From: Candidatus Kapaibacterium sp.
GTDB lineage: Bacteria > Bacteroidota > Ignavibacteria > Palsa-1295
NCBI GenBank assembly: GCA_035632315.1
Contig: DASQGZ010000034.1
Coordinates: 12,693-76,692 of the forward strand
Direction: 5' to 3'
Length of the DNA: 64,000 bases
Each line of letters starts with the position of its first letter. Position 1 is the stretch's first letter. This document shows, piece by piece, positions 15,245 to 27,873 of this stretch. The notes beneath the pieces are model-generated. The model did no database searches. It saw only the letters and a program-made list of their open reading frames with translations, and was not told the DNA's origin. Position numbers and translations under genes: made by a program.

Positions 15245-16096
15245 ATGAATATCCAACTTCAAAACACATATAATGAATGCCGCAGAATCGCGGCACATTA
15301 TGAAAATTTCCCTGTAGGTTCGGTACTCATCCCAAAACGATTGAGGCACCATTTTTATGCATTCTATGCATTTATGCGCACCGCAGATGATTTCGCCGAT
15401 CTGCCGAACCGGTCGCGTGAAAAAAGGTTACGACTTCTCGAAGACTGGCGGGACAAATTACAAATGATCTTATCGGGCGGTACTGTCGATTCTCCGATCT
15501 TTATCGCGCTTGCCAATACTATTACAGAATGTGATCTTGCGAGTGAGCCGTTAAAAAAATTACTCGAAGCATTTGAGTTCGACGCACGCGGAGATGTCCG
15601 CTTCGAAACATTCGAAGATCTTCGGTGGTACACTTCTCGTTCAGCCGACCCGGTCGGCGAACTCGTTCTTGCGCTCTTCGGCTATCGTGATCAGAGGCGC
15701 GTCAAATTATCAAATGACATTTGTACAGCCCTGCAGCTCCTGAATTTTATTCAGGATATTGCAGAAGACCTATCGAACGATCGTTTTTACTTCCCGAATG
15801 AAGATTGGAACATGTTCGGTATCGAGCCTTCGAAGCGCCCCGATCTCGAACGGCTTGCATTGCTCTGTCTGTTCGAACTCGAACGGGTTGAATCGCTCCT
15901 CGATCGTGGCGCGCCGCTTGCCGAAGCTGTCGGTGGGCGGTTAGCATTCGAGCTTCGCGCTATTATCCATTCTGCCCGCCGATTATCGCAAAAAATCGCT
16001 AAAAACGATGGTAACACTTATTTAACGCGCCCAACACTCGGAAAAAGGGAACGTTTCGCTGTGCTTTTACAGTCTTTGATGTTCAGAGCAGCATAA
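15245..16096 (+). CDS. hpnC: squalene/phytoene synthase family protein, HpnC-like (hydroxysqualene synthase)
   Basis: 283 aa; N-terminal HYENFPVGS...YAFMRTADDFAD (Asp-rich motif 1); trans-isoprenyl diphosphate synthase head-to-head fold. Confidence 0.6.
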   Translation: MNIQLQNTYNECRRIAAHYENFPVGSVLIPKRLRHHFYAFYAFMRTADDFADLPNRSREKRLRLLEDWRDKLQMILSGGTVDSPIFIALANTITECDLASEPLKKLLEAFEFDARGDVRFETFEDLRWYTSRSADPVGELVLALFGYRDQRRVKLSNDICTALQLLNFIQDIAEDLSNDRFYFPNEDWNMFGIEPSKRPDLERLALLCLFELERVESLLDRGAPLAEAVGGRLAFELRAIIHSARRLSQKIAKNDGNTYLTRPTLGKRERFAVLLQSLMFRAA

Positions 16097-17028
16097 TGAC
16101 AGACATACGACCCGTTCATAGCGCGGAATCCATTTTTTTAGAAGAGCCTTTGCCTGTCGCATCGACCGACGGCAAGAGTAATTTCTTCTACTCCTTCTCG
16201 CTTTTGCCGCGCGATGAACGCGAGGCACTCCAGTCAGTATATGAATTTTGCCGTTATACCGACGACCTCGTTGATGAAGATCTGCCGCTTGAAATCCCGG
16301 GCATCGATGTCAAAAAAGAAGTAGCGCTCGAAAAGAAACGCGTTCGGCTCGATTGGTGGCGCGCTGAAGTAGAAAAGTGCTATGCAGGAACGAGTAAGCA
16401 TCCGATCCTTCGTAATCTATATAAGGTCATCTTACGCTTCAAAATTCCGAAGCAGTATTTCCTGACACTTATCGACGGTGTCGAGATGGATCTCGTCAAG
16501 AATCGTTATGAGACGTTCGACGAACTGCGGGAATATTGCTATGCCGTAGCCAGTATTGTCGGTCTCGTCACGATAGAAATTTTCGGTTACAAGTTCGAGC
16601 GCACGAAAGAATATGCGATCGATCTCGGTATTGCGCTGCAACTAACGAATATTTTACGCGACGTAAAAAAAGATGCTTCGATGGGGCGCATCTATCTCCC
16701 ACGTGAAGACATGGAATGCTTTGGCGTAACCGAAGAAGATATTCTGCATGGCAATTACAATCTGCCGTTCATTAACCTAATGAAGTTCGAGGTCGCGCGC
16801 GCGCGTGAGCATTACACGTCTGCACGGATGAAGCTTGGCAAAGGCGAGCGTTTCACGCTTTTCGCCGCTCAGATAATGGATGCGATCTATTTCCGATTAC
16901 TTCGCAAGATCGAGCTTGCAGAGTATAATGTCTTTCAAAAGCGTATCACAGTCAGCACACCGCATAAGATCTTGATCGCATTTCGGTTCTGGTTTTCAAG
17001 CGTGATCTTTCGCGAACGCGGAAGCTGA
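16096..17028 (+). CDS. hpnD: squalene/phytoene synthase family protein, HpnD/CrtB-like (presqualene diphosphate synthase)
   Basis: 310 aa; FYYSFSLLPRDEREALQSVYEFCRYTDDLVDE; second Asp-rich motif ILRDVKKD; ATGA overlap with hpnC-like gene. Confidence 0.6.
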   Translation: MTDIRPVHSAESIFLEEPLPVASTDGKSNFFYSFSLLPRDEREALQSVYEFCRYTDDLVDEDLPLEIPGIDVKKEVALEKKRVRLDWWRAEVEKCYAGTSKHPILRNLYKVILRFKIPKQYFLTLIDGVEMDLVKNRYETFDELREYCYAVASIVGLVTIEIFGYKFERTKEYAIDLGIALQLTNILRDVKKDASMGRIYLPREDMECFGVTEEDILHGNYNLPFINLMKFEVARAREHYTSARMKLGKGERFTLFAAQIMDAIYFRLLRKIELAEYNVFQKRITVSTPHKILIAFRFWFSSVIFRERGS

Positions 17029-17071: not shown

Positions 17072-18703
17072 ATGAATAAATTAATTGGTTTTTTTCTTTT
17101 ACTGATCACCTCGCCGGTATTCTCTCAGATCACGGTCGAAGGCACCGTCACCGACGCGAATGGAAAAGCGCCGATCCTTGCTCATGCACATATTGGGCAG
17201 TATAATGATATGGAAAAAAGTACCGACGTACTATGTGACCAGAATGGACATTTTACTGTGCAAGTCCCTGCATTCGGTATTTATTCGCTTCGTCTGAGCG
17301 CTGTCAATCATCAGGAAGTTAATGTGCAGGTCATTCTCGATGGAACGGAAAAAGATGTAATAGTTAGTGTCAGACTTCAGACGAACGCGTATCAGATCGA
17401 AACCCCAAAAGTCACCGGCGACTGGAATAAATTTGCTTTCTCTACTGCCGAGGTGATGAAAGTATCTCAAACAGCCGGTGGAAAGACCATTTACACGGCC
17501 GAACTCACTGCGACAGCCGATACGCTAGCGTATCAATTATTGGGTGTTGCCGGCGAGCATAGTGTTAATGGCACTCAAGCTGACTACTTTTCCTATGACG
17601 GCGGAGGAGATTATCGCTCGGTCATCAAAACTCACAAAGGCGATAAAGTAACGGTCACGTTTGACCCGGAAAAATTACCGGCGACACAAACGACAGGACT
17701 TCCCATCATTGAATTCAAAAATAGCCCATTCCTCAAACGATCGTCAGAACTTTCTACAGCGATCAATAAAATGCATCGAGAGACGTTCCCAGATCCTTCA
17801 AGCGAAACTCCTGTATCTGCGGAGAAATACAAAGAGCTATTTCGATTTATTCAAAAGGCGCAAGCCGATGCTAATACCTCCGGCGACAAGCGCTTGGCAG
17901 AATTTGCGACCGTAATGCTCGTAAAAGAATTTACACCGGAAGCCGAGTTCGGCACAGCAAATGCCGAGCTTGTTCTGCAAACAGTACGGGCTGAGTCGCC
18001 GCTCTGGGTCTTTGCTCCGAACGAGATCATCGAGGTCACCAAACTCGCAGCAAAAGAACGCAGTGAAACATATCGCAATGCGTTGAAAAAGAATCCGCAA
18101 AAACTTGTTCGTGCTATTGCGCTGGCGACTGAAATGCAACATGCTATCTCTGTTGAGGATAAGACAAACTGGAAAAGCCTGTATGTAACTCTAAAGAACG
18201 ATTACAACGATGTTCCCGAAGTCAAATGGTTCATTCTTCAAAATAATCCCGATGCACTTGTTCAAACCGGGAAACTCGTACCGTCTTTCGAGCTGGCATT
18301 GTTAGACGGCTCAGGAAATGTAAGTAATACCTCAATGCTCGGCAAGTATTATATGATAGACTTTTGGGCAACGTGGTGCGGGCCCTGTGTACATGAGATG
18401 CCTGCGGTTCACAAAGCATACGAAAAATTCAGAGGTAAAAAAGGATTTGAGATCCTCTCAATTTCCATGGACGCAAAACAAGACAATATCGCCCCCTTCC
18501 GTGCAAAGAAATGGAAGATGCCGTGGCTCCACGCATTCATCCCCGGTGTGTTCAATGCCGATCTTGCAAAGAAATTCGAAATCGCAGGTATTCCAAAACC
18601 AATTCTCGTCAGCCCTGAAGGTAAGATTGTTGCAAAAGACGACGATCTGCGCGGCGAAAATCTTGAAAAAACACTGGCGAAGTATTTGGGAGAACCGAAT
18701 TAG
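17072..18703 (+). CDS. secreted thiol-disulfide oxidoreductase, TlpA/ResA-like thioredoxin domain with large N-terminal domain
   Basis: signal peptide; C-terminal YYMIDFWATWCGPCVHEMPAV (WCGPC active site). Confidence 0.75.
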   Translation: MNKLIGFFLLLITSPVFSQITVEGTVTDANGKAPILAHAHIGQYNDMEKSTDVLCDQNGHFTVQVPAFGIYSLRLSAVNHQEVNVQVILDGTEKDVIVSVRLQTNAYQIETPKVTGDWNKFAFSTAEVMKVSQTAGGKTIYTAELTATADTLAYQLLGVAGEHSVNGTQADYFSYDGGGDYRSVIKTHKGDKVTVTFDPEKLPATQTTGLPIIEFKNSPFLKRSSELSTAINKMHRETFPDPSSETPVSAEKYKELFRFIQKAQADANTSGDKRLAEFATVMLVKEFTPEAEFGTANAELVLQTVRAESPLWVFAPNEIIEVTKLAAKERSETYRNALKKNPQKLVRAIALATEMQHAISVEDKTNWKSLYVTLKNDYNDVPEVKWFILQNNPDALVQTGKLVPSFELALLDGSGNVSNTSMLGKYYMIDFWATWCGPCVHEMPAVHKAYEKFRGKKGFEILSISMDAKQDNIAPFRAKKWKMPWLHAFIPGVFNADLAKKFEIAGIPKPILVSPEGKIVAKDDDLRGENLEKTLAKYLGEPN

Positions 18704-18715
18704 TGTTTATTTGCA

Positions 18716-18754
18716 TCAAAAAAAAATGGGACGAGAATGTCCCACTTTTTTTTT
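18716..18754. terminator. bidirectional rho-independent terminator
   Basis: aaaaaaaaaTGGGACgagaatGTCCCActtttttttt. Confidence 0.7.
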
Positions 18755-18766
18755 AATATTACCAGC

Positions 18767-19174
18767 TTATTTTCTTCTCATCGCGTCAATACTCCACGGT
18801 CCGGCTCCGGCAGCAGAAATAAAAAGCCAGATGAAGCAGAGGAGCACTGCCGGTTCTCCATGATTGACGACCGTCCAGAATCCATGGGAGAAATGCCCTT
18901 GGAAATATGCAACTGCCATTTCACCGGAGAGAATAAATGCCACCGGACGCGTAAATAATCCAACGAGCAGTAACGCTCCGCCGAAGACTTCGAGGACGCC
19001 GGCAAGTCCCATTTGCGAGAACAGTGAGATCGTTATTCCATTGGGCAATGGCGCCGGCCAGCCAAAGAGCTTCATTGCGCCGGGCTGCATGAAAACCAAT
19101 GCGGCAAAAATGCGCAGCAAACTTAATATATAAGGGGAATACGATTGCCACTTGGATGAAATATTATTACTCAT
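18767..19174 (-). CDS. DoxX family membrane protein
   Basis: 135 aa, four TM helices, typical DoxX N-terminus (YSPYILSLLRIFAALVFMQPGAMKLFGWP). Confidence 0.75.
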   Translation of the reverse strand: MSNNISSKWQSYSPYILSLLRIFAALVFMQPGAMKLFGWPAPLPNGITISLFSQMGLAGVLEVFGGALLLVGLFTRPVAFILSGEMAVAYFQGHFSHGFWTVVNHGEPAVLLCFIWLFISAAGAGPWSIDAMRRK

Positions 19175-19230
19175 ATTTGTCTGATAGATATTAATGAGGG
19201 GCGAAGCAGAGTATCGCCCCCCAAGTCAGT

Positions 19231-19659
19231 TTACTTTTTCGGGTAAGTATAATTTACCATCCACTTGACACCGTATTTATCGGTAAACATACCGAAATAC
19301 GCGCCCCAGAACATATCGGCGAGCGGTACTTCAATTTTTCCTCCTGCGGATAAACCGTTGAAGAGCTTTTCGGTTTCTGCTTTACCCTCCGTTTCGAGAG
19401 AAAGCATCATGTTATCTCCGACATTGAGCTTTTGCCCCATTGACTCGAGTGCATCGGTGCCCATCAGAACATTTCCTTTGCCGATCGGCAAGGAAACGTG
19501 CATGATCTTATCGGCATCCTGCGGCTGCATTTTCGCTCCATCTGGAGTATCCTTGAATCGTTGGAGCGTAATGAACTCTCCGCCGAAGACCGATTTGTAG
19601 AAGTTGAATGCTTCCTCGGTATTGCCGGGAAAGTTTAAGTATGGATTAAGAGTTGCCAT
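19231..19659 (-). CDS. VOC-superfamily protein, PhnB/3-demethylubiquinone-9 3-methyltransferase-like domain
   Basis: 142 aa; MATLNPYLNFPGNTEEAFNFYKSVFGGEF. Confidence 0.7.
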   Translation of the reverse strand: MATLNPYLNFPGNTEEAFNFYKSVFGGEFITLQRFKDTPDGAKMQPQDADKIMHVSLPIGKGNVLMGTDALESMGQKLNVGDNMMLSLETEGKAETEKLFNGLSAGGKIEVPLADMFWGAYFGMFTDKYGVKWMVNYTYPKK

Positions 19660-19692
19660 GGTGGTTTATAATTATTTGGTGAAACAAAAAAA

Positions 19693-20142
19693 TTATCCTT
19701 TTGACGCCGCTTCAAGATCGGCGATTATTATCTTGCTCATTGCAAAAAAAGCTTCCATGATTCGCTTTCCTTTTACGGGGTCACGTTCCTGCAAGAACGT
19801 CCCGAGATTCTCTGGCACGACCTGCCACGAAACGCCGAACTTATCCTTGAGCCATCCACACCGGCTTTCGGCGCCGCCTTCGGTGAGCTTCTGCCAATAA
19901 TAATCGATCTCCTTTTGATCTTTACAGGTAATGAAAAGTGATATTCCTTCTGAGAATGAGAAGTGTGGTCCCCCATTGAACGTGTACAATGTCTGACCGT
20001 CAACTTCGAATGTCCCGCCCTGCGCACGATCTGCGCCCGGGATGAGGCTTGTGATCTTCGAGTTCGGAAAGACGGATGTGTAAAATTTCATCGCCTCTTC
20101 CGCCTGATTATTGAACATCAGGAATGTTGTGATCTTTTGCAT
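19693..20142 (-). CDS. VOC-superfamily protein, PhnB-like (paralogue)
   Basis: 149 aa; ITTFLMFNNQAEEAMKFYTSVFPNS. Confidence 0.7.
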   Translation of the reverse strand: MQKITTFLMFNNQAEEAMKFYTSVFPNSKITSLIPGADRAQGGTFEVDGQTLYTFNGGPHFSFSEGISLFITCKDQKEIDYYWQKLTEGGAESRCGWLKDKFGVSWQVVPENLGTFLQERDPVKGKRIMEAFFAMSKIIIADLEAASKG

Positions 20143-20162
20143 GATATTTTTATTAATGTTAA

Positions 20163-20786
20163 TTATACAAATGAGCCGGTTTTTATATCGCCCGAGCGTG
20201 TATAGTTTGCGACAATAACGCCGTGCGGTGAAACTGTGCTCTTGGTGAGCGTGAATGATCCTGCGATCGTGCCATCGTCAAATAAGCGCTTACCCGATCC
20301 GAGTGTCACAGGAAAGATCTTCAGCCACATCTCATCGACGAGATCGTTCTTCAAGAGTGTCTGAATGAAATTACCACTGCCATGCACTTGCAGGTCGGGT
20401 CCCTTCTCCGATTTTATTTTTTTTACTGCCGCGACGACATCGCCTTCAAGTTGTATGGTATTTTTCCAATCAGACGTGATCGGCGAGCGAGATGCAACAT
20501 ATTTTGTTGCATTATTCAGCGGAGCGGCACCAAGATCTTTTGGATCAGCCTTTGGCCAGTATGAAGCAAAAATGTCGTATGTTTTCCGACCGAGCAACAG
20601 ATCGAATTTATCGCCCATCTGTACACCCATTTCTGTTCCTAAGAATTCATCGAAATATGGTACTGTCCAACCGCCATATTTGAACCCGCTCGAAGTATCT
20701 TCTTCAGGTCCTCCTGGGGCTTGCATGACGCCATCAAGTGAAATAAATGATAGAACTATTACCTTTCTCATATTCATACTCCTCAA
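20163..20786 (-). CDS. dihydrofolate reductase-family protein (RibD C-terminal domain, YwjB-like)
   Basis: VIVLSFISLDGVMQAPGGPEED... Confidence 0.7.
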   Translation of the reverse strand: MRSMNMRKVIVLSFISLDGVMQAPGGPEEDTSSGFKYGGWTVPYFDEFLGTEMGVQMGDKFDLLLGRKTYDIFASYWPKADPKDLGAAPLNNATKYVASRSPITSDWKNTIQLEGDVVAAVKKIKSEKGPDLQVHGSGNFIQTLLKNDLVDEMWLKIFPVTLGSGKRLFDDGTIAGSFTLTKSTVSPHGVIVANYTRSGDIKTGSFV

Positions 20787-20971
20787 TTTTGATTGTTATC
20801 CAGAAACGGGATCACGGTTTCCGCAAGTCGCGGCGACGAACAGATCGTATAATGTGTAAGCGACGGAATAATAGCAAGTTGTGACGCAGATTTTCCCTCT
20901 ATTCCAGCTTGCCCAAAAACAAAAGCCGGCAGAAAAAGGGCAGCGAGCAACACAGTGATGATAGTTTTCAT
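20783..20971 (-). CDS. small secreted hypothetical protein
   Basis: 62 aa with signal peptide MKTIITVLLAALFLPAFVFGQ; 4-nt overlap with downstream gene. Confidence 0.4.
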   Translation of the reverse strand: MKTIITVLLAALFLPAFVFGQAGIEGKSASQLAIIPSLTHYTICSSPRLAETVIPFLDNNQN

Positions 20972-21016
20972 AACTTGTTTTCCTTTCGTTTATAGTAATA
21001 AAATCGTTTTATGTAA

Positions 21017-21505
21017 TTACTCTTTGACAACGGGTACCCAGATCTCTAAATGGACGTTGTTCATATCCATGCTCGGCTCTGAATAAAATTCAAAATCGAG
21101 CGACAGCTTCGGGTCCATCGAGTATCCTGATGTCGGCATCCATTCACCGTAAATGTAGCCGAAAAATTCATGGAGGCGGCTGACTTCACCATTGTATGTA
21201 AAGACTGCATACTTTGCAGCCGGTATCTCCTTGCCCGTCATTCCTTCAGGAATATTGCCGAGGTCCGTGACTGCATATCCGGCGATATAGTAGTACTTCG
21301 GAAACCCGCCTTCATTCATATCAAAGTCACGCGAGTAATCTTCTATGCCGAAGACTCCCGGCAATATCGCATAAGGAATTGTCGTATGCTGTTTTGCGAA
21401 TTCATTCCATGCATCCTGTATTGCAGGAATCCCCCTTTCAGTATATCGCTCGACACCGACGATCTTGAATGCCTCTCTGGTTCGAAAATTTGGTTTTTTG
21501 TTCAT
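21017..21505 (-). CDS. GyrI-like small-molecule-binding domain protein (AraC effector-binding/SbmC family)
   Basis: start placed at internal ATG (MNKKPNF...); IVGVERYT...DAWNEFAK... typical GyrI-like. Confidence 0.65.
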   Translation of the reverse strand: MNKKPNFRTREAFKIVGVERYTERGIPAIQDAWNEFAKQHTTIPYAILPGVFGIEDYSRDFDMNEGGFPKYYYIAGYAVTDLGNIPEGMTGKEIPAAKYAVFTYNGEVSRLHEFFGYIYGEWMPTSGYSMDPKLSLDFEFYSEPSMDMNNVHLEIWVPVVKE

Positions 21506-21632
21506 CTCCGTTGATTTTTGATGATTTAATTTCTTGTGTGCAAAAATACAATGTCGTAATATGCCCATGTGAGGCGCGAAAACGCCAATTTAAAGGGTTG
21601 ATTCCGACAAAAAAATATCGTATCTTTGTGCT

Positions 21633-22598
21633 ATGAAAAACATCGCTATTCTCGTTCCTCGCGGGGCTGCAGCATTAAGCTGCATCGAGGGGTCGGTCAT
21701 TGGGTTTGGCAGAGCCAATGAAGTTCTAGCAAGTTTCGGCAAGCCGCCGCTCTTTCAAACGACACTTGTGGGTATTGATCACGAGCCGCAGACATACGAT
21801 CGGTGCTTCAGTGTTCGTCCTGACGTCACGATAGGCGATCCGCAGAGGTTCGATCTCATTATTATTCCGGCCGTCAATGGAAACTGGAATGACGTGATCG
21901 GCTTAAACCAAGATTTCTTTCCATGGATCATCGATCAGTATAAGCATGGCGCAGAAGTTGCGAGCTTATGTGTCGGTGCATTTTTGCTTGCGGCGACCGG
22001 TCTTGCCGACGGGAAAAAGTGCGCAACACATTGGATGTTTCAAAACGACTTCCGCAAAATGTTTCCGAACATCGACCTTGTCTCCGAGAAAGTGATCACG
22101 GATGAACACGGCGTGTATTCGAGCGGCGGCGCTTCTTCGTTTTGGAATCTCATCTTATACTTGATCGATAAATATGCCGGGCGCGATGTCGCGATCGCCT
22201 GCGCGAAGATCTACGAGATCGAGATCGACCGCAACTCGCAATCGCAGTTCATTATCTTTTCCGGTCAGAAAGATCATGAAGACGAGCCGATCAAAGAAGC
22301 TCAAGCGTTTATCGAGCAAAATTTTCAGAAGAAAATAACTGTCAATGAACTTGCGTCGATGTGCGCGATGGGACGCCGAACATTCGAACGGCGTTTCAAA
22401 AAAGCAACATCTAATACGGTTGTCGAATATCTTCAGCGTGTCAAGATCGAAGCGGCCAAGCGAAGTCTCGAACACAATCGCAAGCACGTTGCCGAGATCA
22501 TGTACGACGTCGGTTACTCCGATACGAAAGCATTCAGAACGACCTTCAAGAAGATCACAGGCCTTTCACCGGTCGACTATAGAAATAAATATGTATAG
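21633..22598 (+). CDS. GlxA-type transcriptional regulator (DJ-1/PfpI domain plus AraC-family HTH)
   Basis: N-terminal DJ-1/PfpI-like (MKNIAILVPRGAAALS...LCVGAFLLA); C-terminal AraC HTH (ITVNELASMCAMGRRTFERRFKK...YDVGYSDTKAFRTTFKKITGLSP). Confidence 0.8.
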   Translation: MKNIAILVPRGAAALSCIEGSVIGFGRANEVLASFGKPPLFQTTLVGIDHEPQTYDRCFSVRPDVTIGDPQRFDLIIIPAVNGNWNDVIGLNQDFFPWIIDQYKHGAEVASLCVGAFLLAATGLADGKKCATHWMFQNDFRKMFPNIDLVSEKVITDEHGVYSSGGASSFWNLILYLIDKYAGRDVAIACAKIYEIEIDRNSQSQFIIFSGQKDHEDEPIKEAQAFIEQNFQKKITVNELASMCAMGRRTFERRFKKATSNTVVEYLQRVKIEAAKRSLEHNRKHVAEIMYDVGYSDTKAFRTTFKKITGLSPVDYRNKYV

Positions 22599-22614
22599 TC
22601 TGAGGCAGCGGATA

Positions 22615-23118
22615 TTACTTGATCGTCATAAGGTACGCATCAAGCTGCTCGAATGTACCACTCCAACCCTGTGTCATACCACCACGCCCGGCTTCGAAGG
22701 TTGCAATCTCTTCTTCGGTACCATCGAGCGGAGCCCATTCGATCATTAATTCCGTTTTACCATCCCGCTCAATGAGTGTTGTCGTCGAGATCATTTTCAA
22801 CGGCCACGTCGGAGCAAGCGGATGAATGGTTACGCCGCCGGCCGCATCGGAAAAATGTGTTATGAGCGAGATCTTTTCGGGCGGGATGATCTCAAGAAAC
22901 GTCCACTTCCCCCACATTTCATTTCCATCAGCGGAGACAAGTGAATAATGAAACGTGCCTCCGACACGAAGATCCATATTACACGTGCCCATCTTCATCC
23001 CCGTGGGGCTGAACCAATTGATGAGATGTTTCGCATCGGTCCATACCGCCCACACAAGTTCGCGCGGAGCATCGAATGTGCGTTTGATCGCGAACGGCTT
23101 TACTGATTCTGCAGTCAC
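22615..23118 (-). CDS. SRPBCC-superfamily protein, AHSA1-like (paralogue 5)
   Basis: start placed at GTG 23118 preceded by AGGAGAATTATT; KPFAIKRTFDAPRELVWAVWTDAKHLINWF. Confidence 0.65.
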   Translation of the reverse strand: MTAESVKPFAIKRTFDAPRELVWAVWTDAKHLINWFSPTGMKMGTCNMDLRVGGTFHYSLVSADGNEMWGKWTFLEIIPPEKISLITHFSDAAGGVTIHPLAPTWPLKMISTTTLIERDGKTELMIEWAPLDGTEEEIATFEAGRGGMTQGWSGTFEQLDAYLMTIK

Positions 23119-23146
23119 AATAATTCTCCTGAATAAAAAAAAATGA

Positions 23147-23632
23147 TTAATACTCCGCAAGCACTTCGTCAAGACGTTCGTAGCCTTCGCGCATCCCCCA
23201 TTCCATACCTTGTTCAAGCATTCCATCACGGTCTGCTTTCGAAGCAAATGTGGAGATGACAGTCATTTTTGTTTTACCGCTGATATTTTCAAGTGTCGTT
23301 GCATTTGTGATAATATGTCCGGCTTGCGGCTCGAATTCAAGGGTCATCACAAGCTTCGATGGCGGATCGAATTCTTTGAAGATGCCATTGAACGCAAATT
23401 CGTTTCCATCAGGATCATACTGAAGAAATCTCCACTTCCCACCCACACGCGGCTCAAGTGTTTCTATGACAGTGCGGAGCATTCGCGGCCCCCACCATTT
23501 GGGGATCATCTCGGCATCTGTCATCGCCTTGAAGACAAGTTCGCGCGGAGCATCGAACTCGCGCGTGATGACGATCTCGGTATCCGAAGCGAGCGTCATT
23601 GTCAATGTGTCTTTAGCAGTTGTTGTACTCAT
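23147..23632 (-). CDS. SRPBCC-superfamily protein, AHSA1-like (paralogue 4)
   Basis: ITREFDAPRELVFKAMTDAEMIPKWWGP. Confidence 0.75.
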   Translation of the reverse strand: MSTTTAKDTLTMTLASDTEIVITREFDAPRELVFKAMTDAEMIPKWWGPRMLRTVIETLEPRVGGKWRFLQYDPDGNEFAFNGIFKEFDPPSKLVMTLEFEPQAGHIITNATTLENISGKTKMTVISTFASKADRDGMLEQGMEWGMREGYERLDEVLAEY

Positions 23633-23650
23633 AATATGTTCTCTTAAGAA

Positions 23651-23917
23651 TTATCCGAAACGCTCGATCGCTCTTGCCTTTGCACGAGCTGCGACGACAG
23701 CACGATCGCGCGGCTCGGCTGTGGTTGTCAGTGAATCAATCAACACCCTGGCAACTCGAGCAGTATCTTCAACGGCTCGATTGAAAGCCGCCACATTTGG
23801 CAAAGAAGGCTTTTGAAAACCCGATAATTTTCTGACGAATTGCAGCGCCGCATCGTGAATTTCTTCGTCGGTTGCAGGCGGATCGAAGTTAAATAGTGTT
23901 TTAATGTTTCTGCACAT
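23651..23917 (-). CDS. DUF2277 domain protein
   Basis: 88 aa starting MCRNIKTLFNFDPPATDEEIHDAALQFVRK, characteristic of DUF2277. Confidence 0.65.
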   Translation of the reverse strand: MCRNIKTLFNFDPPATDEEIHDAALQFVRKLSGFQKPSLPNVAAFNRAVEDTARVARVLIDSLTTTAEPRDRAVVAARAKARAIERFG

Positions 23918-23932
23918 AGTTATTTCGGAATA

Positions 23933-24415
23933 TTACCGAAGACTATCAGCAAGTTTATCGAGCGACTCGTTCCAGCCCTGCTTGGTCATTTCGCTCATTT
24001 CACCGCCCGGTAATCCGGTGTGGTGTAATGTCATCTTTGTTTTGCCGTTCAGATCTTCAAACTCTACGTAGGTTATCATATCTCCGGGAAACTCTCCCGG
24101 AAGACCATAATAACTTGCCGGCACGACATTCCCGTCGGGATCGGAGAATTTATTCGTAAAGACGATCTTTTTCATCGGGACTAGTTCGAGATACTCGCCA
24201 GTGTTGAAATTATCTCTTCCGTCCGGCCAGCGCATCGCCCAAAGAAATTTCCCGCCGACCCTGAGATCTATCTCGCAGACCGGGCAGGTAAATATCTTTG
24301 GTCCCCACCATTTCTTGAAATGCTCCGGCACAGTCCATGCGCGCCAGACAAGTTCGATCGGCGCGTCAAAGATGCGTTCAATAGTAATTTCATTCGTTGT
24401 TACTGTTGCCGACAT
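23933..24415 (-). CDS. SRPBCC-superfamily protein, AHSA1-like (paralogue 3)
   Basis: ITIERIFDAPIELVWRAWTVPEHFKKWWGP. Confidence 0.75.
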   Translation of the reverse strand: MSATVTTNEITIERIFDAPIELVWRAWTVPEHFKKWWGPKIFTCPVCEIDLRVGGKFLWAMRWPDGRDNFNTGEYLELVPMKKIVFTNKFSDPDGNVVPASYYGLPGEFPGDMITYVEFEDLNGKTKMTLHHTGLPGGEMSEMTKQGWNESLDKLADSLR

Positions 24416-24419
24416 CGGT

Positions 24420-24905
24420 TTATCCTTTTAAGTATGTTTGAACATATTCTTCAAGATGGGCAAGATGTTGCTTGCCGCCTTCGATAGCGCCGTATTTCTC
24501 GACGACATGGTTGCGCTGCTTCGCCGTCTGGAATAATGATCTCATTGTCACTCTCGTTTTACCACCAAGATCTTCGAACGTGACCGTTGCGTGAAATTGC
24601 GCATCGTTTACGCCAACATCATCCCCGCCGCCGTGACCATATTCGAGCCTCTCGGGTTTTATGATCGTCTCATAGTACATCTCATTCGGAAAGTCTTTCC
24701 CATCGGGTCCGTGCATCGTGTGAAACCATACGCCGCCGGGCTTGAAGCTGAATTTATGTGTCGTGGTCGTAAATCCGTTCGGACCCCACCATTTCTCGAG
24801 ATGCTTCGGGTCGGTCCATGCTTCGAAGACAAGTTCACGCGGTGCATTGATGATCCGCTCGATGACGATCTCGCGTTCTGTTGTTGATTGATTATCCATA
24901 AGCAA
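24420..24905 (-). CDS. SRPBCC-superfamily protein, AHSA1-like (paralogue 2)
   Basis: IVIERIINAPRELVFEAWTDPKHLEKWWGP. Confidence 0.75.
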   Translation of the reverse strand: MLMDNQSTTEREIVIERIINAPRELVFEAWTDPKHLEKWWGPNGFTTTTHKFSFKPGGVWFHTMHGPDGKDFPNEMYYETIIKPERLEYGHGGGDDVGVNDAQFHATVTFEDLGGKTRVTMRSLFQTAKQRNHVVEKYGAIEGGKQHLAHLEEYVQTYLKG

Positions 24906-24952
24906 CGGTACTATTTATTGAAATAAATAATGTATTTATCAATCAGATAGAG

Positions 24953-25597
24953 TTACTGTTCTACTTCATACATTATATGCGTAATCCCTTGAGAAGGTAT
25001 TACCTTTTTAATTTTTACGGCTCTATCCGGATTCATATTTTCAAAAAGTCTGACGCCATTCCCAAATACGACGGGAGCATAATGAAGAGTAAATTCCTCA
25101 ATAAGGCCTGCGTTGAGATATTGCATCACAGTATTTGCACCTCCCGAGATTCGTATGTCTTTTGAACCGACTACTTTTTTTGCCTGAGCAAGTGCGCTTT
25201 CGATGCCATCGTTTACAAAATAGAATGTGGTGCCACCGGGTCGTACCCACGGCTCGCGAACCTCGTCAGTCAGAACAAATACCGGAGTGTGGAATGGTGC
25301 GTCGTCAGGCCAAGAGTTTTCGCCAGCGTTGAACATATTCTTGCCCATGATGCTCGCCCCGGTACGGGTAAATGTTTCCTCCAGCAGTGTATTATCTTCT
25401 CCTGTTTCACCGCCTTCACCGAATTTTAGGTTTTTAAGAAAAAATTTCTGCTGAAAAACCCAATGCATGAGATCCATCCATTTTTTCATCGAATTCTTGA
25501 ATTCCGGATCTCCGGCAAGAGCCATTTCAAACTTTTCCGGCGCGATGAAGCCGTCGAGCGAGATCACCATATCAAAGAAGACTTTATTCTTTTTCAT
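24953..25597 (-). CDS. dihydrofolate reductase-family protein (RibD C-terminal domain), second paralogue
   Basis: start placed at internal ATG (MKKNKVFFDMVISLDGFIAPE); the longer ORF would overlap the upstream gene. Confidence 0.7.
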   Translation of the reverse strand: MKKNKVFFDMVISLDGFIAPEKFEMALAGDPEFKNSMKKWMDLMHWVFQQKFFLKNLKFGEGGETGEDNTLLEETFTRTGASIMGKNMFNAGENSWPDDAPFHTPVFVLTDEVREPWVRPGGTTFYFVNDGIESALAQAKKVVGSKDIRISGGANTVMQYLNAGLIEEFTLHYAPVVFGNGVRLFENMNPDRAVKIKKVIPSQGITHIMYEVEQ

Positions 25598-25604
25598 AAG
25601 TATG

Positions 25605-26075
25605 TTAATGTGATTGTAAAAAATCTCTGAGTGAAACGCCAATGATATGTTTCCAACCTTCCTCGAAATTCGAGCGGAAGAAATCCTTTGTGTCCGGAAA
25701 ACTCTCGATGCCGGCATGAGTGAGTCGGAGACGGGTACCATTGTTTTCGGGAAACAGCTCGAACGTCACTTCCGAACTGCCGGGATAATTTTCATATCGC
25801 CAGGTGTATGATATTTTTTTGCCGAGAATGACACTTGTTACCTTGCAGAGATGCGTATATGTTTTCCCGCCATTCACGACCGAGAAATGAAATTCAAAAC
25901 CTATCTCAGCCCTAAACTCCGGAAGTTCAAAATACCAGCACGTCAACTTATCATTCTGTGTGATCGCGTCCCAAACTTTGGAAATCGGCACATCGAACGT
26001 TCGTTCGACGATGACCGGCTCGGCGGTATGGACGCCATTATGGTTTGTTCTCGTCGCTGCTGTTGTTTCCTGCAT
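25605..26075 (-). CDS. SRPBCC-superfamily protein, AHSA1-like (paralogue 1)
   Basis: start at ATG 26075 with AAGGAG 7 nt upstream; VIVERTFDVPISKVWDAITQNDKLTCWYF; 38-nt overlap with arsR-like gene. Confidence 0.65.
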   Translation of the reverse strand: MQETTAATRTNHNGVHTAEPVIVERTFDVPISKVWDAITQNDKLTCWYFELPEFRAEIGFEFHFSVVNGGKTYTHLCKVTSVILGKKISYTWRYENYPGSSEVTFELFPENNGTRLRLTHAGIESFPDTKDFFRSNFEEGWKHIIGVSLRDFLQSH

Positions 26076-26397
26076 CTTGTTTCTCCTTCGATTGTAATTC
26101 CTGTAAGTACTGCTCCAATGCATCAAGCTTCCCTTCCCAGAATCTGCGGTACTGCTCGATCCAATCGTCCACCTCGCCAAGCTTGCCCAGTTTTGCTTCG
26201 CAGTACCGCTCTCTCCCCTGCTGCTTGATATCCACCAGCCCGCACTCCGAGAGTATCTTCACATGCTTCGAAACTGCCGGACGGCTCACCTTGAAATGCT
26301 CGGCGATTCCATTGATGGTCAATGCATGAAGCGCAAGCAAACTCAGTATTGCTCTGCGCTTCGGATCGGCTATTGCTTGAAATACATCTCGTCTCAC
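26038..26397 (-). CDS. ArsR/SmtB-family transcriptional regulator
   Basis: FQAIADPKRRAILSLLALHALTINGIAEHFKVSRPAVSKHVKILSECGLV (winged HTH). Confidence 0.8.
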   Translation of the reverse strand: MRRDVFQAIADPKRRAILSLLALHALTINGIAEHFKVSRPAVSKHVKILSECGLVDIKQQGRERYCEAKLGKLGEVDDWIEQYRRFWEGKLDALEQYLQELQSKEKQDAGNNSSDENKP

Positions 26398-26548
26398 GGC
26401 ATATACAACCTAATGCGTAACCGTTCGGTTTCCTATTTTTTAATAATTTTTCAGATTTTTTATTGCCCCTGTAATCTATTTGTTTATAAAGAATTGCAGT
26501 CCCTGGTGTATTGGCACGGCATTGAACCGGATTTTGTTTTAGCATAGA

Positions 26549-26872
26549 ATGAAGATTCTTTTCTCAGTCATTCTGCTCGTTGGGGCATTCTATTTTATCT
26601 GGTGGGGATATAAAAATCTTCTCCGGCGTGAGCGTGATACGGCAGAAGGTGCGATCGATGGTGTTGCTTGTCATCTCTGCGGTGAAGCATATCCGCGCGA
26701 AGAAGTTGTGACGGTAGAAAAGAAAGCCGGTTTCGAAAATTATTTTTGCGGCAACTGCATTGCCAAGCTCGCCGCTGCTTACAATGAAATTGTCGTCGAA
26801 GGTTCTGCTCCGCCTGTTTTCGAGCATCACGTTCTCAACGGCGATAATGGATCGGTAGCTCACTACAATTAA
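26549..26872 (+). CDS. small membrane-anchored zinc-ribbon protein (hypothetical)
   Basis: N-terminal TM helix; CHLCGE...x24...CGNC (two CxxC pairs); stop overlaps dusB start (TAATG). Confidence 0.45.
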   Translation: MKILFSVILLVGAFYFIWWGYKNLLRRERDTAEGAIDGVACHLCGEAYPREEVVTVEKKAGFENYFCGNCIAKLAAAYNEIVVEGSAPPVFEHHVLNGDNGSVAHYN

Positions 26873-27873
26873 TGGCTAGAATCGGACATATCGACTTAGG
26901 GGAAAAGCCATTACTATTGGCGCCGATGGAGGACGTCTCTGATGTATCGTTCCGCATCACACAGCGCCGCATGGGTGCTGATGTCGTTTATACGGAGTTC
27001 ATTTCGAGCGAGGCGATCATCCGACAGATCGCCAAACAAATGAAAAAGATGGCAATGCTCGAAGAAGAGCGGCCGCTGGCGATCCAAATTTATGGTGGCG
27101 ACCCGGAACATATGGCAGAAGCAGCTCAAGTTTCCGAAGCGGCGAGTCCCGATTTTCTTGACATCAATTGCGGCTGCTGGGTAAAGAATGTTGCCGGCAA
27201 AGGTGCAGGCGCTGGTCTCCTGAAAGATCTTCCGCGAATGGAAAAGATGACTCGCGCTGTTGTCGATGCAGTAAAACTACCTGTTACAGTAAAGACCCGT
27301 CTCGGTTGGGATACGGATTCTATTAATATCCTGGATACAGCTCCGATGCTTGAACAAGCCGGAGCCGCCGCATTAACAATTCATTGCCGCACCCGTTCGC
27401 AAGGACATAGCGGCAATGCAGATTGGAGCTGGATACCACGTATAAAAGAGCGTGTGTCGATTCCCGTATTTCTCAATGGTGATGTGAATTCTCCCGAAGC
27501 CGCAGATCGTGCATTTCGCGAGACAGGCTGTGATGGCGTAATGATCGCCCGTGCGGCGATCAGCAATCCGTTCATCTTCCGTGAGATTAAAGAATATTTT
27601 GCTGCCGGTTCGTATTCGCCTGCCTCTCTCGAAGAGCGGATCGAGTTTTGTCTGAACCATCTTCGCCACTCGATCGAAATCCGTGGTGAGCACGCCGGCA
27701 TCCCGAACTTCCGGAAATATTATCTTGGCTATTTCAAAGGTATCTACGGCGCGGCGAAACTTCGCGCAGAGTTGATGTTGATCTGGTCGTTCGCAGAGGT
27801 AGAGGAGAAACTGTGGCAATTCGCAGCGGTTACGAAAGAGCGTGAACAAGCAGCATTGTTAGTTGCCGCATAA
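26872..27873 (+). CDS. dusB: tRNA-dihydrouridine synthase (Dus family, DusB-like)
   Basis: LLLAPMEDVSDVSFR...IQIYGGDPEHM...DINCGCWVKNV... Confidence 0.85.
   Translation: MARIGHIDLGEKPLLLAPMEDVSDVSFRITQRRMGADVVYTEFISSEAIIRQIAKQMKKMAMLEEERPLAIQIYGGDPEHMAEAAQVSEAASPDFLDINCGCWVKNVAGKGAGAGLLKDLPRMEKMTRAVVDAVKLPVTVKTRLGWDTDSINILDTAPMLEQAGAAALTIHCRTRSQGHSGNADWSWIPRIKERVSIPVFLNGDVNSPEAADRAFRETGCDGVMIARAAISNPFIFREIKEYFAAGSYSPASLEERIEFCLNHLRHSIEIRGEHAGIPNFRKYYLGYFKGIYGAAKLRAELMLIWSFAEVEEKLWQFAAVTKEREQAALLVAA

Follow-up and report, generated by a model that had tools for sequence, protein, structure and literature searches.

A putatively autorepressed ArsR operon with five AHSA1/START-like paralogs in Candidatus Kapaibacterium sp.

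Results

Organization of the ArsR-headed operon

The locus analyzed here lies in a 64,000-nucleotide (64-kb) stretch of Candidatus Kapaibacterium sp. DNA (assembly GCA_035632315.1, contig DASQGZ010000034.1, positions 12,693 to 76,692 of the forward strand), hereafter the window, whose own numbering is used throughout, and constitutes a well-delimited eight-gene operon headed by a gene for an ArsR regulator. Its eight open reading frames (ORFs) all lie on the minus strand between positions 22615 and 26397, in the order arsR-S1-RibD_C-S2-S3-DUF2277-S4-S5 (Table 1), where S1 to S5 are paralogs of the AHSA1/START-like type, and the successive intergenic gaps measure -38, 7, 47-53, 4, 15, 18 and 28 nt. 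A preliminary description of this DNA had reported eight co-directional genes with arsR in first place, in agreement with the ORF coordinates, the Pfam assignments and the range of the gaps (-38 to +53 nt). The 38-nt overlap between arsR and S1 that it pointed out is also correct, an AAGGAG sequence being found 7 nt upstream of the S1 ATG. Its placement of the S5 GTG start inside the upstream gene has to be amended: the GTG at position 23118 lies 28 nt past the S4 stop codon (23147), and only the longest mechanical ORF for S5 (TTG at 23247) overlaps S4. This GTG is backed by the AGGAGA that precedes it and by the 167-aa length of its product, equal to that of the ortholog in the related metagenome-assembled genome (MAG) GCA_018266755.1, here termed L002. 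The start of RibD_C is the ATG at 25597 (MKKNKVFF...), 7 nt past the S1 stop, with PDB entry 3kgy aligning from residue 4, and for S2 the ATG at 24899 (159 aa) is more likely than the TTG at 24905 (161 aa), the former being also the start called on L001, an identical metagenome contig with the same gene order.

The gene caller used on L001 missed the arsR frame and called instead an overlapping 140-aa ORF without a Pfam match (1367-1789 of L001, equivalent to 26123-26545 of the window, minus strand). It also lengthened S1 to 172 aa, and the regulator of the operon is thus missing from the annotation of that contig.

A scan of positions 22000-27000 for sigma-70 promoters and terminators returned counts no higher than those obtained with shuffled sequences, and convincing candidates for a promoter of arsR or a terminator of the operon were lacking. 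An Rfam scan of positions 18000-27500 gave nothing credible, its one match, to a snoRNA, being sub-threshold (E-value 0.054). The possibility that the operon forms part of a horizontal-transfer island was considered and rejected because its GC content (0.44-0.49) is similar to that of its flanks; mobile-element genes were also absent among the neighboring genes examined.

Five old subfamilies of AHSA1 proteins

Searches with hidden Markov models (HMMs) place all five paralogs in the same family (PF08327), and none of them in an unrelated one, with scores of 77-129 bits (cutoff 22.1) and alignments running from model position 1 to 121-125 of 125. Solved structures of AHSA1-type START proteins match all five as well, those nearest to S1 being BH1534 (1xn5), Mll2253, CalU16 (3.9e-7) and YndB (1e-6). 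The Polyketide_cyc2 family (PF10604) yields weak to moderate matches for S2 to S4, that of S4 lying above threshold (34 bits, cutoff 27.4). Apart from the regulator, none of the proteins of the operon, seven in number, is covered by an NCBIfam model.

The sequences of the paralogs are widely divergent. S2 to S5 share 26-35% identity among themselves and 17-26% with S1, whereas counterparts of each can be found elsewhere at 47-54% (S1; L097, L159 and L165), 73-78% (S2; L002, L005 and L011), 49-63% (S3; many contigs), 72% (S4; L002) and 55-58% identity (S5; L002, L011, L133 and L165). Because the identity among paralogs (17-35%) is so much lower than that to their counterparts in other contigs (47-78%), S1 to S5 represent five old subfamilies, as the preliminary description had surmised, and a recent tandem duplication can be rejected. 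Its companion statement that the paralogs have only an N-terminal motif in common was too narrow, since RVGG, GKT and C-terminal GW positions are also conserved. S1 deviates from the FDAPRELVW motif, reading FDVPISKVW.

An ArsR regulator without metal-site motifs and its candidate operator

The arsR product exceeds the cutoff of the NCBIfam model for the ArsR/SmtB metalloregulator subfamily (NF033788, HTH_metalloreg; 71 bits, cutoff 55), and its GTG start is supported by an ATG at the equivalent position of the L002 ortholog. Among PDB entries, the Rhodococcus protein 3f6o (8.5e-17) is closer to it than 7r22 (3e-8), which corresponds to Mab3862, a homolog of Rv2034. In an alignment with 13 homologs the canonical metal sites of the family are absent, neither the alpha3 CxC motif (ELCVCD) nor the alpha5 His/Asp motif (D/H...H/E) being present: the alpha3 position reads LTINGIAEHF and is devoid of Cys, and the C-terminal helix contains no His. 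A metal-sensing ArsR was rejected on these grounds. Two cysteines (C52 and C66) are conserved in the close subfamily only, and the C-terminal helix displays a conserved W..YR.FWE..LD.L..YL pattern that is common to other AHSA1-linked ArsR proteins.

The preliminary description had proposed a search for an operator palindrome upstream of arsR. An exact-seed search for inverted repeats in positions 26380-26560 returned only an AT-rich 9-mer, and a palindrome scan of the window alone found nothing; a candidate (Table 1) came to light only by comparing the window with the promoters of orthologous arsR genes. The palindrome GTAACC-N4-GGTTAC is found upstream of all ArsR orthologs with at least 60% identity, at 25-52 nt, in two copies each in L002 and L005 and in one copy each in L097, L143, L144, L146 and L159, and a TTAACC-N4-GGTTAA variant lies 5' of some orthologs with 37-44% identity. 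Overall, 57 regions upstream of ArsR genes were compared and 13 of them carry a site, the background being 0.0048 per 230 nt. Allowing for up to one mismatch, the candidate is the single match to GTAACC-N4-GGTTAC in the window, where 0.03 would be expected by chance, and it is followed by a second, degraded half-site (GGTTGT). In L143 (3620-3706), L144 (3592-3678) and L146 (1042-1128) a near-consensus promoter (TTGACA-17-TACAAT) directly precedes the GTAACC-N4-GGTTAC box, which lies 9 nt before the ATG, and these promoters provide a clean model for the site of repressor action. The TTGACA-17-TACAAT consensus of these three contigs was not seen in the promoter region of the window arsR.

Frequency and composition of AHSA1 arrays

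Metagenome contigs were scanned with an alignment of the paralogs, confirmed by means of S3 and searched with an iterated HMM to count AHSA1 domains, resulting in 80 S3-anchored loci. Many of these contigs are short, so that all counts are lower bounds: one AHSA1 domain was detected at 49 loci, two at 21, three at 3, four at 3 and five at 4, and an ArsR gene at 53. Four or more domains are therefore present at seven of the 80 loci (four of the 26 loci spanning at least 8 kb). As for the companion genes of the operon and the adjoining cluster, RibD_C was identified at ten loci, VOC at eight, DoxX at three and DUF2277 at none. The preliminary description had considered the ArsR-AHSA1 pair common and the presence of five paralogs unusual. 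The first point is in agreement with a published survey (PMC2701414), and the second stands in that five domains occupy the upper tail of the distribution (4/80), but not to the point of being unique; the five-paralog array is thus situated at the far end of a common pattern, and less unusual than first claimed.

Members of different AHSA1 subfamilies that are encoded by separate genes in the window occur elsewhere as domains of single ORFs, two or three per ORF and joined by short linkers. One such case is a stop-free ORF of L165 (8158-9558) that combines S1-like, S2-like and S5-like domains. Fusions of S3 and S4 occur in at least nine independent contigs, either as S3-S4 (L102, L111, L116, L121, L124, L125 and L127) or as S4-S3 (L113 and L129), although the use of S3 as anchor inflates the number of fusions that contain it. 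S2-S3 is found in L133 (1318-2307), a two-domain X-S2 ORF in L002 (6302-7489) and another single ORF with several AHSA1 domains of different subfamilies in L112 (3811-5280). Since each of the five subfamilies is fused to another in some contig, we consider all of them to be functionally linked, and it follows from the same fusions that the AHSA1 proteins probably act together.

Conservation of a wider cluster

The L002 contig shares with the window the flank formed by queA, dus and a 107-aa ORF, and its gene order is ArsR, the fused X-S2 ORF, S3, DUF2277, S4, S5, VOC, VOC and DoxX. The S2-S3-DUF2277-S4-S5 block is hence kept in the same order, and the genes are not scattered in this relative, which was the outcome to be checked according to the preliminary description. 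With respect to L002, the window contains S1 and RibD_C as extra genes at the head of the operon and, after S5, an extra segment made up of a GlxA-type AraC regulator, a GyrI-like gene and a second RibD_C gene, beyond which VOC-VOC-DoxX is again found. Because VOC-VOC-DoxX directly follows S5 in L002, this AraC/GyrI-like/RibD_C segment looks like an insertion splitting an ancestral ArsR-to-DoxX cluster; its AraC gene and S5 are convergent and 16 nt apart. Four further contigs of Bacteroidota type (L005, L011, L172 and L175) carry ArsR, three to four AHSA1 genes, DUF2277, VOC and DoxX, together with, variously, an MFS transporter, a hydrolase or a GyrI-like gene, and in all four, as in L002, VOC and DoxX, with or without the GyrI-like gene, come after the AHSA1/DUF2277 array. 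The conserved unit is consequently larger than the operon and extends over approximately 18767-26397, the coordinates of the preliminary description (22615-26397) covering only its first half.

Table 1. Features of the operon and of the adjoining cluster (window coordinates; E-values follow the Pfam or PDB matches to which they refer).
Feature	Coordinates	Strand	Description
arsR	26038..26397	-	119 aa, GTG start; ArsR/SmtB-family winged-helix repressor; Pfam HTH_5, 2.8e-13
Candidate ArsR operator	26417..26432		GAAACCGAACGGTTAC on the gene strand; one mismatch to GTAACC-N4-GGTTAC; -35 to -20 from the arsR GTG
S1	25605..26075	-	156 aa; AHSA1/START-like, most divergent paralog; PF08327, 1.8e-21
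RibD_C	24953..25597	-	214 aa; RibD_C / dihydrofolate-reductase family; PF01872, 3.7e-14, 53 bits (cutoff 24.1)
S2	24420..24899 (or to 24905)	-	159 aa (or 161); AHSA1/START-like; PF08327, 1.1e-29; PDB 1xuv, 2ldk
S3	23933..24415	-	160 aa; AHSA1/START-like; PF08327, 1.4e-37; PDB 1z94, 1xfs
DUF2277	23651..23917	-	88 aa, between S3 and S4; PF10041, 4.4e-34, 117 bits (cutoff 25), model positions 1-78 of 78
S4	23147..23632	-	161 aa; AHSA1/START-like; PF08327, 8.5e-26; PDB 1xuv (MM0500), 7.6e-44
S5	22615..23118	-	167 aa; AHSA1/START-like, last gene of the unit; PF08327, 4.9e-26; PDB 2lf2
GlxA-type AraC regulator	21633..22598	+	DJ-1/PfpI and HTH_18 (Pfam); divergent from the GyrI-like gene; absent in L002
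GyrI-like/Cass2	21017-21505	-	Pfam; gene calls on L001
Second RibD_C gene	20163-20777	-	Pfam; gene calls on L001
VOC/PhnB-like (first)	19693-20142	-	Pfam; gene calls on L001
VOC/PhnB-like (second)	19231-19659	-	Pfam; gene calls on L001
DoxX	18767-19174	-	Pfam; gene calls on L001

The RibD_C reductase and DUF2277

The RibD_C protein of the operon is presumably an NADPH-dependent reductase, as suggested by its family and by its matches to PDB entries 3kgy (1.2e-74, residues 4-210) and 2gd9 (YyaP, 4e-10), and the RibD_C genes found at S3-anchored loci encode proteins with only 26-38% identity to it. DUF2277 is conserved at 59-86% identity among Proteobacteria, Firmicutes, Acidobacteriota, Actinomycetes, candidate phyla and others, with an invariant N-terminus (MCRNI..LFNFDPPAT) that includes Cys2. 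Its AF2 model is a confident one that consists of four helices (pLDDT 82.5) and returned no informative fold match, and no PDB sequence matches the protein. The DUF2277 protein of the window is 100% identical to one annotated from a 'Candidatus Kapabacteria bacterium' MAG; the NCBI taxonomy enters the related name 'Candidatus Kapaibacteriota' as a synonym under taxid 976, which is Bacteroidota. The scan of GTDB genomes with DUF2277 as anchor returned no close Kapabacteria relatives, and its 80 species loci represent a test of the linkage between DUF2277 and AHSA1 genes rather than a synteny set. No neighbor of DUF2277 is conserved over these loci. Given that DUF2277 is found inside an AHSA1 array at only one of them, in an Ignavibacteriae MAG, its presence in the operon is lineage-specific; it lies within AHSA1 clusters only in contigs of Bacteroidota type. 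A 4-nt overlap of DUF2277 with a LigD Prim-Pol gene was observed in L173 and L174. The conservation of this protein without a known function makes it worth a separate study.

Other neighboring genes

Divergently from arsR, the 107-aa ORF shared with L002 (26549-26872, plus strand) encodes a product with a hydrophobic N-terminal segment, two CxxC pairs (CHLC...CGNC) and no Pfam match, and is kept at the same place beside dus in that MAG. At the other end, approximately 2 kb past DoxX, lie two adjacent genes of the squalene/phytoene synthase family (SQS_PSY; 15245-17028, plus strand, also at 10884-12667 of L001). They are separated from the cluster by a gene for a thioredoxin-like protein that carries a CarboxypepD_reg domain, and no link of the SQS_PSY pair to the operon was seen.

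Discussion

The association of ArsR with AHSA1 proteins is not in itself new. In their 2009 survey of 750 genomes, Makarova, Wolf and Koonin (Biol Direct 4:19; PMC2701414) described some 280 pairs of ArsR and COG3832 (Aha1) genes, with up to ten per genome, in which the ArsR partner is devoid of metal motifs, and favored a role in resistance or stress over that of a true toxin-antitoxin (TA) system; the linkage has also been noted in a Frankia genomics paper. The locus reported here agrees with this module in its chromosomal location and patchy distribution, and in that the gene of an ArsR protein without metal-binding motifs directly precedes an AHSA1 gene and overlaps with it. It differs in that the published module is a strict, stand-alone pair, whereas here ArsR heads eight co-directional genes and the array continues into a VOC/DoxX/GyrI-like cluster. 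We therefore regard it as a relative of the ArsR-COG3832 pair that has been expanded, and not as a canonical pair; the candidate operator, the way in which the subfamilies are fused and the extent of the cluster can be considered new.

The best-studied regulator of this class is Rv2034 of Mycobacterium tuberculosis, an autorepressor that does not respond to Zn, Ni, Co, Cd, Pb, Cu or Mn (Gao et al. 2012, PLoS One 7:e36255; PMC3338718). Its gene is co-expressed with Rv2035, a COG3832 member for which a polyketide_cyc2 domain has been cited, and Rv2036, and its DNase footprint covers CCGTAAGT-N4-ACTTACGG, beside its own start codon (PMC3338718). Both operons thus begin with an ArsR-like regulator followed by an overlapping COG3832-family gene, both regulators lack the canonical metal sites, and the footprinted site and the candidate operator are both 6-4-6 inverted repeats near the start codon, GTAAGT-N4-ACTTAC in M. 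tuberculosis and GTAACC-N4-GGTTAC here. The half-sites differ, however, at positions 5-6, and the M. tuberculosis operon contains one START-type gene as opposed to five. A kinship of the two regulators may be traced through the M. abscessus homolog Mab3862 (PDB 7R22, E-value 3e-8), although the Rhodococcus protein 3f6o is a closer match to the window ArsR, and autorepression and metal insensitivity, which were demonstrated for Rv2034, would apply to the window ArsR by analogy.

With regard to the AHSA1 proteins, the same START fold is adopted by the self-sacrifice proteins CalC, CalU16 and CalU19 and by Bacillus subtilis YndB, and among the five paralogs S1 alone matches CalU16, weakly. Stark et al. 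are said to have found, in 2010, that YndB binds flavonoids and chalcones. CalC is an enediyne self-sacrifice resistance protein (cited in PMC2701414), and proteins of its type set a precedent for the binding or neutralization of hydrophobic natural products by AHSA1 proteins, although identity to the window paralogs is low and no enediyne or other biosynthetic genes are found among some 20 genes neighboring the operon. A comparable arrangement is annotated on a plasmid of the archaeon Halostagnicola larsenii (NZ_CP007057, HALLA_RS16550 to RS16530), where an ArsR/SmtB gene is followed in the same direction by three SRPBCC genes and then by one of the dihydrofolate-reductase family; it differs from the window in its archaeal host, its plasmid location, the presence of three START-like genes instead of five and the absence of DUF2277.

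Taken together, these comparisons lead us to favor, with slightly better than even confidence, an interpretation of the locus as an autorepressed non-metal ArsR operon that encodes a battery of START-like proteins for the binding of small molecules, supplemented by reductase, VOC, DoxX and GyrI-like functions in an accessory capacity, and hence as an enlarged member of the ArsR-COG3832 stress modules. The regulatory half of this interpretation draws on sequence conservation and on a characterized homolog, and we infer the functional half from fold and gene neighborhood. According to it, a dimeric ArsR would bind GAAACCGAACGGTTAC, located 20-35 nt before the arsR GTG, and repress its own transcription unit, which would run through the eight genes from arsR to S5, with S1 being translationally coupled to arsR, until a non-metal signal released the repressor. 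The five AHSA1 proteins, which are of the helix-grip type, would then most likely bind, sequester or neutralize hydrophobic small molecules in a protective role, candidate ligands being antibiotics, phenolics and polyketides of plant or microbial origin and quinone- or lipid-like compounds, and the reductase, together with the downstream VOC, DoxX and GyrI-like genes, would contribute additional capacity for binding as well as the chemical modification of ligands.

Several observations weigh against this interpretation. Neither a recognizable sigma-70 promoter nor a Shine-Dalgarno sequence is apparent 5' of the arsR GTG, the window carries a single good operator box as compared with two in relatives, and the AT-rich gap of 47-53 nt upstream of S2 could be the site of an internal promoter. 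On the functional side, the nearest PDB entries are throughout structural-genomics proteins described as uncharacterized, and the literature searched holds no ligand, inducer or phenotype for close homologs, so that the graded or multi-ligand binding system suggested in the preliminary description is conjectural. Moreover, the AHSA1 subfamily that follows ArsR and the type of RibD_C protein differ between loci, which suggests interchangeable parts and argues against a fixed pathway, and DUF2277, which lies outside AHSA1 arrays at 79 of the 80 GTDB species loci, may be a passenger gene.

The fusions raise a different possibility, namely that S1 to S5, perhaps joined by DUF2277, assemble into a single hetero-oligomer, either a multi-pocket carrier or an enzyme complex, instead of being independent binders of different ligands. 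The occurrence of the same subfamilies in single ORFs with short linkers (S1-S2-S5, S3-S4 or S4-S3, S2-S3 and X-S2), the preservation of the S2-S3-(DUF2277)-S4-S5 order in L002 and gaps of 4-28 nt that suggest co-translation would all be in line with such an assembly. Yet array composition and order vary widely, with 49 and 21 of the 80 loci having only one or two AHSA1 domains, and a fusion denotes functional linkage and not necessarily physical contact; the fusions would also fit one assembly, a reading that is compatible with that of independent binders. In its strictest form, in which the five subfamilies are obligate partners in a multi-pocket hetero-oligomer under a non-metal ArsR, with DUF2277 perhaps taking part in this lineage, we regard the proposal as unlikely, as we do its general form. 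If true, however, the arrays would constitute an unrecognized multi-subunit machine for handling small molecules, as opposed to a group of binders with redundant roles, and the fusions would be its trace.

It might also be argued that the AHSA1 proteins do not deal with foreign compounds at all, but handle an endogenous lipid or quinone, in the manner of the Coq10- and CoxG-type START proteins, in conjunction with the membrane protein DoxX. The roles of bacterial START proteins in quinone and lipid biology have been stressed in a 2026 review (PMC13525633). DoxX is the last gene of the cluster, not only in the window but also in L002, L005, L011, L172 and L175, and S4 passes the threshold of Polyketide_cyc2, a family whose Pfam description includes lipid transport. 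VOC/PhnB-like, GyrI-like and RibD_C families are, on the other hand, generally typical of xenobiotic binding and modification, and it is their company that the AHSA1 genes keep. The cluster is also patchy and variable, unlike core lipid or quinone metabolism, and among some 20 neighbors with Pfam assignments only the SQS_PSY pair, on the opposite strand and approximately 2 kb past DoxX, is lipid-related, and no quinone-biosynthesis genes were seen. An endogenous lipid or quinone ligand hence seems improbable and has less support than the small-molecule-binding battery.

COG3832-ArsR pairs are commonly labeled in databases as TA systems, and an addiction or persistence module with ArsR as antitoxin and S1 as toxin would be the corresponding explanation for the window. 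The pair was indeed first flagged in a screen for TA-like, patchy two-gene modules (PMC2701414), Rv2035-Rv2034 has been listed with other candidate TA systems of M. tuberculosis that undergo induction in persister cells (PMC3968373), and the overlap of arsR and S1 resembles the coupling of TA genes. Nonetheless, the authors of the original screen preferred a role in resistance or stress (PMC2701414), and a Stenotrophomonas maltophilia COG3832 protein turned out to be non-toxic in kill-rescue assays in both Escherichia coli and S. maltophilia (PMC7650669). An operon of eight genes with five AHSA1 copies and enzymes does not resemble a two-gene TA pair, no mobile-element genes were seen among the neighbors examined and the operon is similar to its flanks in GC content, and we consider a TA function decidedly improbable. 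Least probable of all is a small biosynthetic pathway in which RibD_C would act as the reductase and the AHSA1 proteins as enzymes of the cyclase or dehydratase type: polyketide cyclases belong to the SRPBCC superfamily, S2 to S4 match Polyketide_cyc2 and a reductase does sit within the operon, but no synthase, ligase or PKS/NRPS gene was seen among the neighbors, an MFS transporter is present in the L005 cluster only and no demonstrated cyclase figures among the PDB neighbors of the AHSA1 branch, so that this scenario, too, has less support than the binding battery.

These results do not overturn current views on ArsR-AHSA1 modules; they refine an open annotation problem and do not reveal a new kind of system. 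In soil and environmental bacteria, the modules rank among the most common uncharacterized pairs of regulator and effector, and they often carry a mistaken toxin-antitoxin label. In this context, the GTAACC-N4-GGTTAC palindrome provides a testable operator that ties a Bacteroidota subfamily to the footprinted site of Rv2034, the arrays and their fusions offer evidence that distinct AHSA1 subfamilies travel, and at times fuse, together, and the definition of a wider cluster comprising AHSA1, VOC, DoxX, GyrI-like, RibD_C and DUF2277 genes may serve as a guide for ligand and phenotype screens.

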